In this document: positions 4,732 through 64,000 of the stretch, one piece after another
Layout: every line of letters begins with the position of its first letter
Position numbering within the stretch: position 1 is the stretch's first letter
Assembly: GCA_965261595.1 (NCBI GenBank)
Contig: CBDHDG010000006.1
Coordinates: 1-64,000, forward strand
DNA length: 64,000 bases
Origin: a bacterium
GTDB taxonomy: Bacteria; UBA8248; JACPRG01; G963555815
Direction: 5' to 3'
The notes under the pieces: generated by a model
Told to the model about the DNA's origin: nothing
Database searches by the model: none
The model's input: the letters and a program-made list of their open reading frames with translations, nothing else
Position numbers and translations under genes: made by a program

Positions 4732-5294
4732 GGCAGCCTCCAGCGCGCCGGCTCCAGCACCGCGCGCACCCAGTGGGCCTCGCGGTAGACCCCGTCGGCG
4801 TCCACGAAGGGCGCGATCCAGATCCGCGCGATGCTCTCTTTCGTGCGCAGGCGGTCATTGGCCTCATCCGGGGATCCTTCGTCCGGCGAAACGGGTTCCG
4901 GTTCGGCAGGGGCCGCGGCGGTAGGAGGACGCCCTGTCTCCGTGGACTTCTCTGCGGTGCCGTCTCGGTCCCCGACGGTCCGGAACCACTTCGCGAGCCA
5001 GGCGAGCGGATCGCAGCCTTCGGCGCAGGATGTGCCGGTCCCTTTGGCATTACCGGTCTTGGATTGGTAGAGGGGTGTCCGGATCGCGAGCCCTTGCGCC
5101 TTGCCGGGGGCCGCGACCGCCGGATCGGCCTCCGCGACGCTCGTGCAGGCCGCGCCTTGGGCCAGGGGGCATTGCCAGGCGTCGCCCACGTGGGTCGCCG
5201 CGCAGCCGCCCAGGACCAGCGCCGCCGCGAGGATCGCGGGGATCACCGCCCGGCTTTGTCCGATTCGTGGATGAATCGTCGATTGCGCTCTCAT
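4728..5294 (-). CDS. traV: TraV lipoprotein
   Basis: Lipobox LGGC, C-x7-C (WQCPLAQGAAC), C-terminal RIWIAPFVDADG. Confidence 0.88.
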   Translation of the reverse strand: MRAQSTIHPRIGQSRAVIPAILAAALVLGGCAATHVGDAWQCPLAQGAACTSVAEADPAVAAPGKAQGLAIRTPLYQSKTGNAKGTGTSCAEGCDPLAWLAKWFRTVGDRDGTAEKSTETGRPPTAAAPAEPEPVSPDEGSPDEANDRLRTKESIARIWIAPFVDADGVYREAHWVRAVLEPARWRLP

Positions 5295-6544
5295 TGGCCT
5301 CCTCTCTTCCTGTCCTTGCGCCCGTCGAGCCAGGCGCCCTCGATGAACACCACCGTCACCCGCGTTCCCGTCTGGAGCTGGATCACCGGCTGGTACTGCT
5401 CGGCCCGGCGGATCAGGTAGTCGGCCACCCTGCGGCCGGCCGAGCCCGCGCCCGCGCCAAGACCGGCCCGGCCGAGCTCGGCTAGGCTCGATACGTTCAA
5501 GGCTCCGTCCGAGGTTGTCCTGGCCGGGGCCTGAAGCAGGTTGGCGGCCGTTTCGCCCACGCCCGAGATGAGGCCCGCGAGGAACGCCTTCTCGATCAGG
5601 GCCCCCTCGCGGCTCACCACCGGGCCCCGAACGCCCACCTTGCCGCTCCCGGCCACGAAGCCCGCGACCTGCGTCTCGGTCACGGTTTCCGGATCCGGCC
5701 CGGCGCACGTCAGGGTCCGCAGCCGGACGTAGACCTTCTCCGAGGAGAGGTCCCCGTAGCCGGCGCCGGTCAGGGTGCACCCCGCCACGTCCACTTCGAG
5801 CGCTTCGCCGCCCTCGGCCGCGCTCCGGGCCGGACCGGTCAGCCGCAGGAGCACCGGGCGCGGCTCGCCCTGGGAGGCGACGCCCGCCGAGGCGTCCGCG
5901 CCGGCCAGCACCACGGCGTCCGCATAGGACCCCGCCGGCAGCCAGGACCCCAGCGAACGGGGTCCCGGATCAGCGGCGTTCTTGTCCCCCGCCGGATCCG
6001 CATCATTCTCGAACTCCTGGATCATCGGTACGGCCGGTGCGGCATCCGAGGCCGCGGGGGCTCTCTTGCCGGGAGCAGGTTGGCTCGAAACCGCACGGGT
6101 AAAACCGTCCGTGCCCGGGGCGGTCCGGTCCTCCGGACCCGGTCCTGCCGTCCGGGCTTCGAGCCGGCCGCGCAGTTCCTCGATGGCCGCCGCCTGTTGG
6201 TCGATCACCGCCCGGCCGTCCTCGGCGCCGCGCGCGAGGCGCTCTCTGAGCTTGGCGTTCTCCTGCCCGGCCCGCCGGCTTCGCGTCTCCATGTCCCGGA
6301 GCCGCGTCTCCAGTTCGCCGATCCGCGCCTCCGAGCGGCGCACCCAGCTCACCTCCGCCGTCTCCGGACCGGCCAGCTTCGCCTCGATCCCGGTCGGCGG
6401 GGGCGAGCCTCCGCCTCCGCCCGCCGAGAACCACACCGCGAACACGATCAGCAATGCCGCGGCCACGCCCGAGAAGAGCAGCACCTGTTGCTGACGGGTG
6501 CGCCGGGCCTCCGGATCCATGGGGACCTTGTCCGGGCCGCTCAT
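5291..6544 (-). CDS. traB: TraB (VirB10-like) pilus assembly protein
   Basis: TM + coiled coil; LPAGS, GC..TGAGYGDLSSEK, GVRGPVVSREG, RAEQYQPVI. Confidence 0.92.
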   Translation of the reverse strand: MSGPDKVPMDPEARRTRQQQVLLFSGVAAALLIVFAVWFSAGGGGGSPPPTGIEAKLAGPETAEVSWVRRSEARIGELETRLRDMETRSRRAGQENAKLRERLARGAEDGRAVIDQQAAAIEELRGRLEARTAGPGPEDRTAPGTDGFTRAVSSQPAPGKRAPAASDAAPAVPMIQEFENDADPAGDKNAADPGPRSLGSWLPAGSYADAVVLAGADASAGVASQGEPRPVLLRLTGPARSAAEGGEALEVDVAGCTLTGAGYGDLSSEKVYVRLRTLTCAGPDPETVTETQVAGFVAGSGKVGVRGPVVSREGALIEKAFLAGLISGVGETAANLLQAPARTTSDGALNVSSLAELGRAGLGAGAGSAGRRVADYLIRRAEQYQPVIQLQTGTRVTVVFIEGAWLDGRKDRKRGGQ

Positions 6545-60482: not shown

Positions 60483-60599
60483 CAAAAACTCCTTCTCGGC
60501 CCGCACCGGCCGGGCGCGCCATCGTTCACCGAATCCCCAATTATTTTACCATGAGTTCCGGAATTCATCCCACGGCGCTCCCGATTGGTAGTGGTCTAG

Positions 60600-61859
60600 T
60601 GGAGTTGACCCGGTTTGGTGGACACCTGATGATTTGGGGGTAAAGGAGGTGTTCACGATGCCACAGACTCACCCACGCTATCCAATGGAGTTCCGCTGCC
60701 AGATGGTAGAGTTGGTCCGGGCGGGACGCACGCCCGAGGCGCTGGCGCACGAGTTCGAGCCCTCGGCGCAGACGATCCGCACCTGGGCCCATCAAGCCGA
60801 CGTTGACGAGGGGCGTCGCAAAGACGGGCTCACGAGCGATGAGCGGGAGGAGTTGCGCCGACTTCGCCGCGAGAACCGACAGCTCCGCCAGGAGCGGGAG
60901 ATCTTAGCAAAAGCCGCGGCCTGGTTTGCTCGGGATACCGATTCGATCCCGTCCGGATCTACGGGTTCGTGAGGGCGAACCAGGCCATGTATCGGACCGC
61001 CACCATGTGCCGGGTGCTGGGCGTCTCCTCCAGCGGCTACTACGCGTGGCGCAGGCGCGCGCCGTGTGCCCGCTCGTGTGCCGATCGGGCGCTCACCAAA
61101 CGCATTCAGGCGATCCACGAGCGTTCTCGGGGGACTTACGGCGTGCCGCGCGTCCATGCCGAGTTGGAGGCTGAGGGAGTGCGTGTGGGCCGCAAGCGCG
61201 TCGCCAGGCTGATGCGTGGGGCGGGACTTGCGGGCGTCAGTCGGCGCAAGGGAGCGCGCACGACGCAGCGCCGGCAGGAGGCGCGGCCGGCCCCTGATCT
61301 GGTGGACCGCAACTTCACGGCCGAGGCCCCCGACCGGCTGTGGGTGGCCGACATCACCTACGTTCCGACATGGGCGGGGTTTTTGTATCTGGCCGTGGCG
61401 CTCGATGCGTTCAGCCGGCGCATCGTGGGGTGGTCGATGGCCACACACCTGCGGGCCGAGTTGGTGCTCGACGCGCTCGACATGGCGCTGTATAAGCGCC
61501 GTCCCCGGGCCGTCATCCACCACTCCGACCAGGGCACGCAGTACACCTCGGTCGCCTTTGGGCAGCGCTGCCGGCAGGCGGGCGTGCGTCCCTCCATGGG
61601 TTCGGTCGGGGACTGCTACGACAACGCGCTGTGTGAGAGCTTTTTCGCCACGCTGGAGTGCGAGCTCCTCGCTCGCCACAGTTTCCGCACCCGGGCCGAG
61701 GCGCGCATGGAGGTGTTCGGGTTCATCGAGGGCTTCTACAACCCGCATCGTCGGCACTCCTCCATCGACAACCTGTCACCCGTTAACTACGAAAGGAGAC
61801 AACAACGCACACCCTGAAAACCCAAGTGCTTAACTCTCCACGAAACCGGGGTAAGTCCA
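60600..61859 (+). mobile_element. IS3-family element, apparently intact (orfA 60658-60972, orfB 60969-61817), related to 10980-12390
   Basis: IRs TGGAGTTGACCCGGTTTGGTGGA / TCCACGAAACCGGGGTAAGTCCA; WVADITY, HHSDQG, DNALCESFF; no target duplication seen. Confidence 0.95.
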
Positions 61860-61948: not shown

Positions 61949-61984
61949 AAAAAGGCCACAGCGAACACTCGCTGTGGCCTTTTT
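61949..61984. terminator. Bidirectional intrinsic terminator
   Basis: AAAAAGGCCACAGCGA-ACAC-TCGCTGTGGCCTTTTT, 16 nt downstream of the Panacea gene stop. Confidence 0.85.
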
Positions 61985-62000: not shown

Positions 62001-62543
62001 CTATTTGGCTAGTGCCTCGAAATCCTTCCTGTATCTTGTGTGGATTTTCTCTCGGGCCCTTTCCAAAACCAATTCCCTTTGCTTTTTCATAACACCAGAA
62101 ACATCAAGGGGTTGATATTGCTCAGAACTCTTCATCGGGGCAGTCCCATAGACCTGTTGTAGGAATAGTCCAAATGAAAGGTGCCAAGTCTGACTAATCA
62201 ACTTCTTGAGCATGTCCCTAACCTCTTCAGGAAGATGTAAATCCTCTGGGGGTTTGGGAGCGATCCACTCATACCAACGTTTCCGTGTCCCAAATGGGGT
62301 CGTATCTGCCCAGACTTTTACTTTCTCTTCTTTTTCAAGGGTTTTCACGGACCCATCTGCGTCTGGAACAAATGGGCCGTAATCATCCCAAAACCATTGA
62401 ATATCTGTGAGTTGTTCCCCACGTCTCCATGCCCATTCGACATCGGCGAGATAGAGTAGTTTTGTAAGTCGAGCCCTGGTAAGCTCATCCGGCTTCGGGT
62501 ACTCTGAGATCACGAACGCCACCAAATCCTTTAACGTTGCCAT
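62001..62543 (-). CDS. Panacea (DUF4065/SocA) domain antitoxin-like protein
   Basis: RLTKLLYLAD...W..YGP...VYGTAP; RBS AGGAGG. Confidence 0.82.
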   Translation of the reverse strand: MATLKDLVAFVISEYPKPDELTRARLTKLLYLADVEWAWRRGEQLTDIQWFWDDYGPFVPDADGSVKTLEKEEKVKVWADTTPFGTRKRWYEWIAPKPPEDLHLPEEVRDMLKKLISQTWHLSFGLFLQQVYGTAPMKSSEQYQPLDVSGVMKKQRELVLERAREKIHTRYRKDFEALAK

Positions 62544-62630
62544 TTGCCGACCCCTCCTAAATTCAATAGTAGTCCTCAAATTCAAGGCACGTCAAATCAT
62601 TTTCTGCATTGCGAAAAGAATATGGATATT

Positions 62631-62673
62631 TAGATACGTATCTATTGACAGGCAATATGTAATGGGCTATATT
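62631..62673 (+). promoter_or_regulatory. Sigma70-type promoter with adjacent palindromic operator
   Basis: TTGACA (62645-62650)-N17-TATATT (62668-62673); perfect palindrome TAGATACGTATCTA at 62631-62644. Confidence 0.75.
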
Positions 62674-62698: not shown

Positions 62699-63139
62699 AT
62701 GAATTTCCTTGAATCCGTAGAAGCTCAAATCAAAATCCTCAAACACGAGGAAGCCATTGTCCTGAAAGAGATGGCACCGCTCCAGAACAAACTTGAGTTA
62801 ATGAGGCTCCAAATAGCCCACCTGGATGGGTATTTGACTACCCTTGGTTCAGGGGTGCTAGGCGGGGCAACCACTGAAAAAGAACCCATTACCGAAAAGA
62901 TTGTTCGTGTCTTTGAGCGTTCGAAAAGCCCCCTCCACTACATGGAGGTCATGGATTTGCTTGAAACGCAAGAGGGCTTCGTGCTGGGCGGTAAAGACCC
63001 CAAAGCCAATATGACCGCTAAGCTCGCTGGAAGCGCCAAGTTCAAGCGCCTGGAGCGTGGAGTCTATATCCTGTCGGAGTGGGCGGAAAAAGAGGAATCC
63101 CCAGCAAGTGAGGAACCTGCTGGGGATTCCAATGATTAG
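62699..63139 (+). CDS. Coiled-coil + HARE-type winged HTH protein
   Basis: IVRVFERSKSPLHYMEV...GGKDPKANMTAKL...FKRLERGVYILSEW; RBS GGGAGA. Confidence 0.72.
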   Translation: MNFLESVEAQIKILKHEEAIVLKEMAPLQNKLELMRLQIAHLDGYLTTLGSGVLGGATTEKEPITEKIVRVFERSKSPLHYMEVMDLLETQEGFVLGGKDPKANMTAKLAGSAKFKRLERGVYILSEWAEKEESPASEEPAGDSND

Positions 63140-63140
63140 C

Positions 63141-63233
63141 GGCGGGGTGGCTGAGTGGCTTATAGCGTGGGATTTATAATCCCTTGGTCGGTGCTTACCC
63201 ACCGGCACGCAGGTTCGAATCCTGTCCCTGCCG
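63141..63233 (+). tRNA. tRNA with TAT anticodon on a class II (Ser-type) body
   Basis: Acceptor GGCGGGG/CCCTGCC, D arm GCT-GAGTGGCTTAT-AGC, anticodon arm (T)GGGA-TTTATAA-TCCC(T), variable arm GTCGGTG-CTTACC-CACCGGC, T arm GCAGG-TTCGAAT-CCTGT, discriminator G; CCA not encoded (CCT). Confidence 0.9.
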
Positions 63234-63409
63234 CCTATAATTTCTAGTGGGTCTCAAGGGTGCAGACACACCCAAGAGACCCTTGGTCACACCATCCGGG
63301 AGCACCCGAACAATGCAACCCGACACCCCTCAAGATACTCCTTTAAATCTGGAGAATCAAGCGGAATGTGACGGGCATTGCTCCTGGACCACCAAGGGAG
63401 CATCCGTCA

Positions 63410-64000
63410 ATGAACCGCCTTCACCGATCTCGACAGGTCCAGATTCTCTCAATGCTCACTGAGGGTGTGAGCATCTGCGCCATCTCCCGAATCACCGGAG
63501 TCCACAAGGTCACGATTCTCAAGCTCTTGAAGGAAACGAGCGAGAAGTGTGAGGCTCTGCTGGATTCCAAGATGCGGGATATCCCGGCAAAGGAAATCCA
63601 GGCCGACGAAATCTGGACGTACGTTGCTAAGAAGCAACGAAAAGTCCGAAGTTCCGATGGACGGGGGGTAGGCGATCAATTCATCTTCGTGGCCCTGGAA
63701 GCGGAAACCAAGCTCGTCCCTTGCTACGCCGTGGGGAAACGGGACGCCCTCACCGCCACTCGGTTCATGATGGATCTGCGACGACGGATTCAGGGCAGGG
63801 TGCAGTTGACCACGGATGCTTTCCGCCCCTATCCCGATGCCGTTGAAAGGGCTTTCGGGGCGGATGTGGATTACGCCCAACTCATAAAGGCGTTCCGGTC
63901 CAATGGATTCACAAGGGAGGTCTACAACCCAAGCGATATAATTGAGACAATCCCGATAACCATAATGGGAAACCCGAACAAGCGGTCAATCTCAACCAGC
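63410..64000 (+). CDS. IS1-like DDE transposase (runs off window)
   Basis: Own translation: MNRL..HTH (EGVSICAISRITGVHKVTI), IQADEIWTYVAKKQ, VGKRD, QLTTD, DYAQLIK, GNP...ISTS. Confidence 0.85.
   Translation, partial: MNRLHRSRQVQILSMLTEGVSICAISRITGVHKVTILKLLKETSEKCEALLDSKMRDIPAKEIQADEIWTYVAKKQRKVRSSDGRGVGDQFIFVALEAETKLVPCYAVGKRDALTATRFMMDLRRRIQGRVQLTTDAFRPYPDAVERAFGADVDYAQLIKAFRSNGFTREVYNPSDIIETIPITIMGNPNKRSISTS

Follow-up and report, generated by a model that had tools for sequence, protein, structure and literature searches.

A class II tRNA(UAU) with a serine-type body as probable cargo of an IS1-family insertion sequence

A serine-type tRNA(UAU) and the element around it

The window analysed here is a 64,000-nucleotide stretch of bacterial DNA (contig CBDHDG010000006.1 of assembly GCA_965261595.1, positions 1 to 64,000, forward strand). 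Near its right end, at 63141..63233 (+), lies an intact class II tRNA gene of 93 nt that joins a serine-type body to the anticodon UAU (63175-63177) and G73. ARAGORN calls it as the single tRNA of the window, tRNA-Ile(tat) at 63141-63235 (+) with the anticodon at position 35 and CC at 63234-63235, and RF00005, the sole Rfam family over threshold in the window, matches 63141-63233 with 54.2 bits (gathering score 29, E=7e-9 for the window). In our own parse, a 7-bp acceptor stem (G1-C72, G2-C71, C3-G70, G4.U69, G5-C68, G6-C67 and G7-C66) is followed by U8 and G9, a D arm of GCU, an 11-nt loop and AGC (a 3-bp stem, then G26), an anticodon stem of four pairs and a U27.U43 mismatch with the loop UUUAUAA, a 24-nt variable region with a 7-bp stem and a 6-nt loop (-10.7 kcal/mol by itself), and a T stem of G49.U65 and four further pairs with the loop UUCGAAU; G73 is followed by CCT, and CCA is not encoded. 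The coordinates, 7/5 layout, loop, anticodon site, 7-bp variable arm and G73 given in an initial annotation of this DNA were all borne out by ARAGORN, Rfam and this parse. As for the cloverleaf that it called complete, all arms do form, but with two G.U pairs and one U.U mismatch.

Folding energy does not separate the tRNA from shuffled sequences (z-score of the minimum free energy only -1.51, 16 of 200 shuffles folding equally well), and the tRNA is judged real because of the covariance model and the covariation in its relatives. The window tRNA is genuine and structurally sound, with serine identity features and the anticodon UAU. The serine identity set of the E. coli literature consists of G73, G1-C72, G2-C71 and C11-G24, the last of which is likewise present, and position 3:70 is C3-G70, not the commoner A3-U70. 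The anticodon, being UAU and thus not the serine NGA or GCU, fails a naming rule and not a charging rule, because seryl-tRNA synthetase (SerRS) does not read the anticodon (PMC7609411). A bacterial tRNA-Ile (class I, A73, with GAU, lysidine-CAU or, in few genera, UAU) was ruled out by the class II shape and G73, only the anticodon fitting, and tRNA-Sec (8/5, 13-bp branch, UCA) by the 7/5 layout and UAU, Rfam keeping tRNA as the best family of the clan. With up to three mismatches allowed, no second copy of the tRNA 3′ half was found elsewhere in the window, and therefore the gene is not a tRNA-attB duplication of a genomic island and was dismissed as an integration-site remnant.

The tRNA is very probably cargo of an IS1-family insertion sequence (IS) and not a housekeeping gene. 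Downstream of it, on the same strand, stands an IS1-family DDE transposase gene assigned by homology (63410..64000, +), which the window end cuts after 197 of 272 codons, which holds four ATA codons at 63884-63964 and whose own protein record is P0004 (272 aa). This transposase is 87.6% identical to that of L018, the locus holding the closest relative of the tRNA in the genome scan described below, and the DNA of the two loci agrees at 84% over 868 nt, from 4 nt 5′ of the tRNA through the transposase. At least 7,998 related clusters at E<=1e-20 are named 'IS1 family transposase' by their source, plasmid relatives are annotated alike, and the full-length L018 transposase scores 27.4 bits with Pfam DDE_Tnp_IS1 (cut-off 24.1) and 72.9 with NCBIfam transpos_IS1 (cut-off 100). 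The left terminal inverted repeat (TIR) of the element (GGTAGTGGTCTAG...), shortened by an IS3 insertion, lies at 60587..60599 (+); 16 nt of the left TIR match the L018 TIRs GGTAGTGGTCTATTTTGAC / GGTAGTGGTCTAGTTTGAC, and the window has no GGTAGTG within 3.5 kb of the tRNA other than that at 60587. The right end lies beyond base 64000, so that the left TIR is all that the window shows.

The secondary insertion is an IS3-family element with approximate boundaries at 60600..61859 (+), imperfect inverted ends at 60600-60623 and 61836-61859, and two overlapping frames, orfA (60634-60972) and orfB (60969-61817), the latter matching Pfam rve, HTH_21, rve_3 and rve_2. Since GGTAGTGGTCTAG at 60587 directly abuts it, it is the IS3 element that entered the IS1-like one, about 13 nt into the left inverted repeat, and given this insertion the IS1-family carrier may no longer be mobile.

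Immediately upstream of the tRNA lies the gene of a 146-aa protein (62699..63139, +; the 146-aa form is P0123), the stop codon of which ends 1 nt before the tRNA. Its translation, an AlphaFold (AF2) model and a family hidden Markov model (HMM) describe it as a coiled-coil and winged-helix (HARE-HTH-like) protein, the model having a helix at residues 3-50 and a winged helix at 64-130 (pLDDT 73.6). Fold matches in the PDB are all weak (E>=0.035), those to the N-domain of RNA polymerase delta (HARE-HTH) and to forkhead domains being the best, and Pfam HARE-HTH stays below threshold for the window protein (E=0.015) and for that of L018. The protein has four close homologues, and a profile search collected 288 representatives at E<=1e-3; no plasmid hit came from tblastn with the ORF. 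An HMM of 114 family members hits the ORF just 5′ of the tRNA in the window, L018, L047, L049, L062, L013 and L067, that is, 7 of the 50 loci with an ORF upstream of the tRNA. Compared pairwise, the upstream ORFs fall into separate groups, and those of L008, L054, L066, L012 and the L043 group resemble the family in size and position only. A sigma-70-like promoter, TTGACA-17-TATATT with 11 of 12 consensus matches, is predicted for the ORF-tRNA cassette at 62645..62673 (+), and it is conserved between the window and L018, where the homologous ORF is also preceded by a TTGACA...GGGCTATATT arrangement. The 146-aa protein may thus be a DNA-binding regulator co-transcribed with the tRNA.

Further features of the element and its surroundings lie on either side of this cassette. 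On its 3′ side, an imperfect hairpin (GGGTCTCAAGGGTG / CACCCAAGAGACCC) read from the sequence occupies 63249..63282 (+); a hairpin of other sequence is found at the equivalent position of L018 (6102-6135), the tRNA of L012 is also followed by a hairpin, and such a structure could serve as a terminator or processing site. On the other side, divergent from the cassette, stands an additional passenger, a SocA/Panacea-domain (antitoxin-like) gene at 62001..62585 (-; Pfam SocA_Panacea, E=1.3e-6, 29.7 bits against a cut-off of 25.7), with a perfect 16-bp hairpin on its 3′ side (61949-61984). It is alone in the IS, no partner toxin gene being recognised within the IS. GC content falls from about 0.73 at the window start to 0.55-0.65 near 14 kb and stays lower up to base 64000, reaching 0.505 in the final 2 kb, and much of the window may be a horizontally acquired island with chemotaxis, two-component and heavy-metal ATPase genes.

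Relatives of the tRNA and their carriers

A genome collection of 185,579 species was scanned with one pattern, composed of UGNNNGAGNGG for a Ser-like D loop, YUUAUA for the loop with the anticodon, a gap so long that it takes a class II tRNA to fill it, and GGTTCGAATCC, and leaving the acceptor positions, 11:24 and 73 free. The scan returned 71 loci, which together with the window make 72 parsed sequences. TAT is thus no one-off, recurring at 71 further loci in many phyla; because the pattern required TAT, this is the recurrence of a type and not anticodon conservation among all relatives, and the scan cannot tell whether relatives with other anticodons exist. Acidobacteriota are the largest group, and the other hits come from Alpha-, Beta- and Gammaproteobacteria, Bacteroidota, Thermodesulfobacteriota, Verrucomicrobiota, Chloroflexota, Gemmatimonadota, candidate phyla radiation (CPR) bacteria and one archaeon. 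At the matched sites ARAGORN calls tRNA-Ile(tat) in 55/71, tRNA-Val(tac) in 2/71 and nothing in 14/71, the uncalled loci nearly all having a variable region of 29-38 nt. Neither plasmids, phages nor E. coli genomes gave a blastn match to the tRNA.

Pairing filters (acceptor >=6/7, T stem >=4/5, anticodon stem >=4/5) were passed by 54 of the 72 sequences, 52 of them distinct. Among these 52, G73 is found in 44 (U73 in 6, A73 in 2), G1-C72 in 49, G2-C71 in 48, A3-U70 in 34 and C11-G24 in 50; G13 stands opposite A22 in 41 and U22 in 11, the D region has 17 nt in 49, and the variable stem ranges from 5 to 12 bp; the scan pattern demanded none of this. The serine-type body that had been assigned to the window tRNA (G73, G1-C72, G2-C71, C11-G24, a long variable arm, and a D stem of 3 bp closing a loop of 11 nt) is therefore kept across the 52 relatives. 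These positions match the bacterial serine set and would exclude leucine and tyrosine (A73) as well as selenocysteine (8/5).

For covariation, 40 of the 52 members were aligned, the 12 with a variable region of >=28 nt being left out. Over the cloverleaf and variable stem, 92.3% of cells are paired, against 39-49% with the partners slid, the percentages of the acceptor, T and anticodon stems being inflated because those stems had been pre-filtered for pairing; of the unfiltered stems, the D stem is 98% and the variable stem 80% paired. Double changes occur at 25 of 28 pairs, all 8 variable-stem pairs covary, and the observed values were reached by 0 of 500 shuffles. The homologue search thus found covariation in every arm, and the tRNA structure is under selection. 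A decaying copy of tRNA-Ser, caught by chance with a mutated anticodon and without function, might be suspected from the G4.U69, G49.U65 and U27.U43 of the window copy, its lack of an encoded CCA and the IS3-disrupted element. That explanation is extremely improbable: compensatory changes have preserved all four stems and the variable stem in 52 distinct sequences from many phyla, elements of three transposase families carry the tRNA as cargo, as set out next, and the window copy, which has the acceptor 5′ strand and anticodon stem in common with its L018 relative, differs from it in the variable stem, where there are two double changes.

In 38 of the 72 loci, the tRNA has a DDE transposase within 4 kb (IS66, DDE_Tnp_1 and IS3 neighbours counted too), and tblastn with the window transposase found matches in 14 loci. 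Ten loci, the window among them, have an IS1-like transposase 100-240 nt 3′ of the tRNA on the same strand, and 5 more have one nearby in other orientations. In L018 and L054, GGTAGTGG... inverted repeats enclose ORF, tRNA and transposase (1.77 and 2.17 kb), L018 being flanked at both ends by the near-repeat GAAAATA/GAAAAATA, near-identical over 8-9 bp; GGTAGTG stands on both sides of the tRNA in L015, L034, L047 and L062. The search for TIRs by alignment failed or was insignificant for L008, L013, L015, L034, L062 and L066.

An IS1595-family transposase is found 0.1-2.7 kb from the tRNA in 17 loci, and inverted repeats of 21-49 nt (...ATTATTCACTTGACACAAA...) enclose transposase and tRNA in 10 of 13 loci tested, the search giving none for L017, L022 and L007. 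An acidobacterial metagenome-assembled genome holds, on three contigs, three copies of a 2.5-kb unit that are 99.9-100% identical and run in the order TIR, 174-aa ORF, 7 nt, tRNA(UAU) with encoded CCA, hairpin, SWIM and DDE_Tnp_1 transposase, TIR. Inverted repeats or identical copies accordingly place tRNA(UAU) inside elements of the IS1, IS1595 and IS4/5 types. The tRNA lies upstream of the transposase in the IS1 and IS4/5 types, whereas in many IS1595 types the two genes converge. The controls came from plasmids and comprised four IS1 and six IS1595 relatives, all without the tRNA. The four plasmid IS1 relatives (L072-L075, 45-49% transposase identity) have a 370-390-aa HTH/XRE-family gene beside the transposase instead of the tRNA; one of them adjoins a RES-Xre toxin-antitoxin pair and another lies near a Shedu gene.

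Several variants were noted among the scan hits. A subgroup left uncalled by ARAGORN (L004, L005, L009, L010, L022, L031, L047-L049, L063, L064, L067 and L068) has a variable region of 29-38 nt and a total length of 98-107 nt; most of its members nonetheless have perfect 7-bp acceptor and 5-bp T stems and G73, and by analogy with some allo-tRNA-UAU species they may possess a fifth stem. L042 and L069 (Frateuria and Rhodanobacter) are not serine-type: they have A73 and a GCCCCCG acceptor, ARAGORN shifts their loop and reads tRNA-Val(tac), and the pattern has here picked up another kind of class II tRNA. In the Flavobacteriia (L024, L029, L037 and L060), the first two acceptor pairs are mismatched (UC... 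versus ...CC), and the tRNA-like gene has a 52-65-aa ORF on one side and, on the other, a LexA/S24-type gene after which come CBASS genes (SMODS with patatin or NUDIX); these may be degenerate or differently processed members.

The remaining surroundings are diverse. In the Parcubacteria, the class II tRNA(UAU) lies back to back with a 74-nt tRNA-Ile(UAU) (L044:5765-5838 and 5994-6083, L057:4780-4869 and 5035-5108), having the loop CUUAUAC, G73 and a conserved housekeeping synteny (FtsH, RecG), and close relatives in L026 and L065 (CPR) adjoin aminoacyl-tRNA synthetase genes. Surroundings are ordinary housekeeping ones in L005, L011, L014/L028, L053 and the CPR loci L026, L044, L057 and L065. 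The tRNA(UAU) adjoins type I CRISPR-Cas genes (Cas3, GSU0053/GSU0054, Cas1-Cas4, Cas6) in the unrelated bacteria of L055, L058, L059 and L061, and a Cas3-like ORF in L068. Other neighbours outside transposons are phage-type integrases (L002, L023, L039), AbiEii (L040), Schlafen (L010), a reverse transcriptase (L065) and a terminase (L067).

ATA codons and the reading of AUA

Our reading, to which we give a probability of about 0.5, is that the window holds a serine-identity tRNA(UAU), cargo of an IS1-family element, which the host charges with serine and which makes AUA ambiguous between isoleucine and serine in carrier cells. Of its parts, charging with serine, suggested by the conserved identity positions, is somewhat favoured, and the odds that host ribosomes use the tRNA at AUA fall just short of even. 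The tRNA and the small coiled-coil/winged-helix gene would form a two-gene cassette within the element, and the tRNA would probably be transcribed from the promoter of the upstream ORF, released by RNase P and 3′ trimming, and given its CCA afterwards. The host SerRS, blind to anticodons, would most likely charge it with serine, and the serylated tRNA(UAU) could then compete with the host lysidine tRNA-Ile2 for the rare AUA, to yield isoleucine or serine. The element might thereby gate or tune its own AUA-containing transposase, or AUA-rich competitors might be harmed at small cost to a GC-rich host, any particular selective benefit being in itself unlikely. A wider form of this reading, rather unlikely as a whole, would have insertion sequences of at least three families carrying a private seryl-tRNA(UAU) under a winged-helix regulator, with AUA ambiguous or reassigned in the host cell, with transposases adapted so that AUA occurs only where isoleucine is dispensable, and with the tRNA gating its own transposase or penalising AUA-rich phages and plasmids.

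AUA is rare in the host, as the initial annotation had expected: ATA makes up 20 of 10,559 codons in 19 long window ORFs (9 of them chosen by length only, with no domain check), which is 1.9 per 1000 and 4% of the isoleucine codons. This rarity would suit a selective poison or decoy, in which serine at AUA cripples AT-rich invaders, or the tRNA absorbs an anticodon nuclease, and the element is kept as protection of the host; we know of no nuclease aimed at the UAU anticodon. The SocA/Panacea gene in the window element, the members near CRISPR-Cas, CBASS (L024, L029, L037), AbiEii, Schlafen, integrases and terminase genes, and the toxin-antitoxin neighbours of allo-tRNAs noted in the available text of Mukai et al. 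(PMC5389517) point the same way, the defence-gene neighbourhood being weak evidence because mobile DNA is drawn to defence islands and to tRNA genes alike. AT-rich hosts have members too, however, and the element's own transposase would be hit as well, and we regard a poison or decoy as highly unlikely.

The transposases that travel with the tRNA were examined for their use of ATA, excluding the cluster 6 'proteins' of L003, L047 and L049, which are wrong-frame ORFs over IS1-like genes. The tRNA-linked IS1595-like transposase genes hold 50 ATA codons, which recur at the same alignment columns and stand opposite I/V/L/M in about 15-19% of sequence pairs. In the same genes, ATC and ATT stand opposite I/V/L/M in 65-71% (ATC 70%, ATT 65%), and GTA and CTA, at 64-72%, are normal; in the six tRNA-less plasmid IS1595 genes of the same alignment, ATA does so in 75%. 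Counted by columns, ATA occupies Ile-like ones in 1 of 20 cases in the tRNA-linked genes versus 12 of 17 in the tRNA-less controls (Fisher p=6e-5) and versus 55 of 104 for their own ATC and ATT (p=4e-5), and a weaker trend is seen in the IS1-like group (9/23 vs 47/71 columns, p=0.03). In at least one carrier family, ATA thus appears not to be an isoleucine codon, which would fit unreliable decoding of AUA in carrier cells and stops short of proving serine insertion.

These columns also bear on a mobile AUA decoder charged with isoleucine, which we hold to be quite unlikely. Here isoleucyl-tRNA synthetase (IleRS) would read the UAU-A37-A38 loop, and the element would, in a phage-like manner, bring its own tRNA supply for its AT-richer genes. 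The IleRS of B. subtilis and Mycoplasma accept UAU anticodons. In the window transposase, ATA accounts for 4 of 210 codons (19 per 1000, all between codons 173 and 199), tenfold commoner than in host ORFs, and these are at isoleucine or valine positions; tRNA-less relatives of similar, middling GC are nearly without ATA (0, 1, 0, 0 and 1, 0, 0, 1 per gene), and several conserved isoleucine columns of the IS1-like group, such as DEIW, hold ATA. The ATA codons of the IS1595 type, however, avoid Ile-like columns, the opposite of what an isoleucine decoder predicts, G73 is not the A73 of tRNA-Ile, and the tRNA has a class II shape and the conserved serine set. In the available text on nematodes (PMC3333845), moreover, class II tRNA(UAU) is charged with leucine according to its body and not its anticodon.

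Several observations weigh against a serylated AUA-reading tRNA. The residues opposite ATA are T, R, A, G and S, with serine at 6-8% versus 25-39% for true serine codons, and an 'ATA = Ser' recoding signature was dropped for this lack of a serine peak; because of it, the footprint means 'not used as isoleucine' and not 'read as serine'. The tRNA-bearing IS1595 elements L050 and L064 have zero ATA in the transposase. Compared with 110 homologues, the four ATA codons of the window transposase stand at columns of V57/I22, I69/V20/F12, I43/T29 and I81/V19, and because these are isoleucine or valine positions, efficient insertion of serine would damage the element's own transposase. Position 27:43 is unpaired in 18 of the 40 aligned members including the window, which may weaken decoding, and members are also found in AT-rich CPR and Flavobacteria genomes, where AUA is common and serine at AUA would be very costly. 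Finally, in the available text of Mukai et al. (PMC5389517), six allo-tRNA-UAU species of a different structural class showed no amber suppression in E. coli once their anticodon had been changed to CUA, and two were lethal to the cells.

The inactive allo-tRNA-UAU variants, the isoleucine and valine positions and the common 27:43 mismatch would also suit a tRNA-shaped RNA with no ribosomal role, a processing or stabilising module, a regulator or a bait, whose shape is kept for RNase P or tRNA-binding proteins. The CPR loci in which the class II tRNA(UAU) adjoins a normal 74-nt tRNA-Ile(UAU), and the 14 of 71 loci uncalled by ARAGORN, also speak for such an RNA. We consider it unlikely: the conserved positions are exactly those relevant to SerRS (73, 1:72, 2:71, 11:24 and the variable arm), the anticodon stem covaries, and the ATA footprint of the IS1595 type is hard to explain without an effect on decoding. 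Nor does one transcript-processing role fit all arrangements, because the tRNA is upstream of the transposase in some element types and convergent with it in others.

Natural tRNAs with mismatched body and anticodon are rare, and this one belongs to a defined mobile unit whose ends are mapped and which also holds a partner gene and an ATA-recodable transposase; this makes deletion, anticodon-swap and codon-swap experiments straightforward. Its place as IS cargo shifts the question from an odd host tRNA to what a transposon does with a tRNA. Should the tRNA prove active, a codon-level change of the genetic code would be passing from phylum to phylum on transposons, and annotation pipelines that label such genes 'tRNA-Ile' would be wrong; should it be inactive in translation, insertion sequences would possess a widespread regulatory RNA in the shape of a tRNA, likewise something new.

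Comparison with known systems

The closest counterparts are the allo-tRNAs of Mukai et al. (PMC5389517), described in the available text of that paper as serine-identity tRNAs that have a long variable arm and an anticodon, most commonly UAU, for another amino acid, and that are found in Acidobacteria and soils, in the vicinity of transposon-related genes and of toxin-antitoxin systems. Some of serine identity insert serine at non-serine (leucine) codons in E. coli, and one allo-tRNA pseudogene overlaps a transposon-related ORF; the authors hypothesise an association with transposable elements (PMC5389517). A 2020 review repeats this account (PMC7609411), and the roles of allo-tRNAs and tRNAProX are called unknown in the available parts of reviews from 2020 and 2024 (PMC7609411, PMC11415595). 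As far as that text of Mukai et al. goes, the window tRNA resembles allo-tRNAs in being bacterial, in its serine identity and non-serine anticodon, and in lying near transposon or toxin-antitoxin genes. Allo-tRNAs have an 8/4 or 9/3 layout with a 12-bp branch, whereas the acceptor and T arms of the window tRNA parse as 7/5, in line with what the initial annotation had noted, and an eighth pair would be U8:U65. Allo-tRNAs also have a tRNA-Sec-like long D stem with a tetraloop and a longer anticodon stem, in contrast to the 3-bp D stem, 11-nt loop and anticodon stem of four pairs and a mismatch seen here. The listed allo-tRNA-UAU species are without positions 9-10, with examples of U73, whereas the window tRNA has an ordinary tRNA-Ser D arm and G73. 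For allo-tRNAs an association with transposons was hypothesised; the present family is located between the inverted repeats of elements from three IS families, and a conserved ORF lies upstream of the tRNA. Five motifs of the window tRNA were looked for in the supplement of Mukai et al. (PMC5389517), and none was present except an unrelated 8-mer.

Some loci also resemble the polycistrons of irregular tRNAs that Mukai et al. described. In the IS1-like elements of L006 (709-784) and L013 (5571-5644), a second short odd tRNA of 74-76 nt, labelled Thr-cgt and Ser-gct by ARAGORN, follows the UAU tRNA after about 5 nt, and the long-variable-arm UAU tRNA of L009, L031 and L048 has a short tRNA-like gene (Ala-tgc, Cys-gca, 'Ser-act') directly 5′ of it.

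The tRNA-Ser(CAG) of the CTG-clade yeasts likewise combines serine identity with the anticodon of another amino acid and an ambiguous or reassigned rare codon. Decoding-damping features are described in its anticodon arm (PMC11415595, available text). It is eukaryotic and chromosomal and serves a genome-wide reassignment, whereas the window tRNA is transposon-borne. The nematode nev-tRNAs are class II, bear isoleucine (UAU) or glycine anticodons that match rare codons and are charged by their body with leucine (PMC3333845); in the parts of that source available, they share the class II shape and UAU with the window tRNA, but have leucine identity, are eukaryotic and are not on mobile elements. 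Streptomyces tRNAProX, paired with ProRSx, has a mismatch of body and anticodon and mistranslates when expressed in E. coli (PMC11415595). It has a class I proline body and a dedicated synthetase paralogue, with no transposon link reported in the available text, whereas the window tRNA is class II and IS-borne. The same 2024 review of mistranslation covers tRNAProX and Sec/Cys hybrids and, in its available parts, adds no case of the kind seen here (PMC11415595). The minor tRNA-Ile(UAU) that reads AUA in Mycoplasma, Bifidobacterium and Neorickettsia (PMC8450103, available text) is class I and replaces the lysidine tRNA, in contrast to the class II window tRNA with its G73.

In the literature covered, which leaves aside subscription-only papers and bioRxiv supplements, no report of an IS- or transposon-borne tRNA was found. 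Insertion sequences with passenger genes are 'transporter IS' in ISfinder usage. These include IS1 and IS1595 relatives with extra genes between their repeats, and in the window-type element the passenger is a tRNA. By analogy, the window tRNA may work like an allo-tRNA or a Candida-type serine tRNA, yet in structure it falls outside the definition of the allo-tRNAs.

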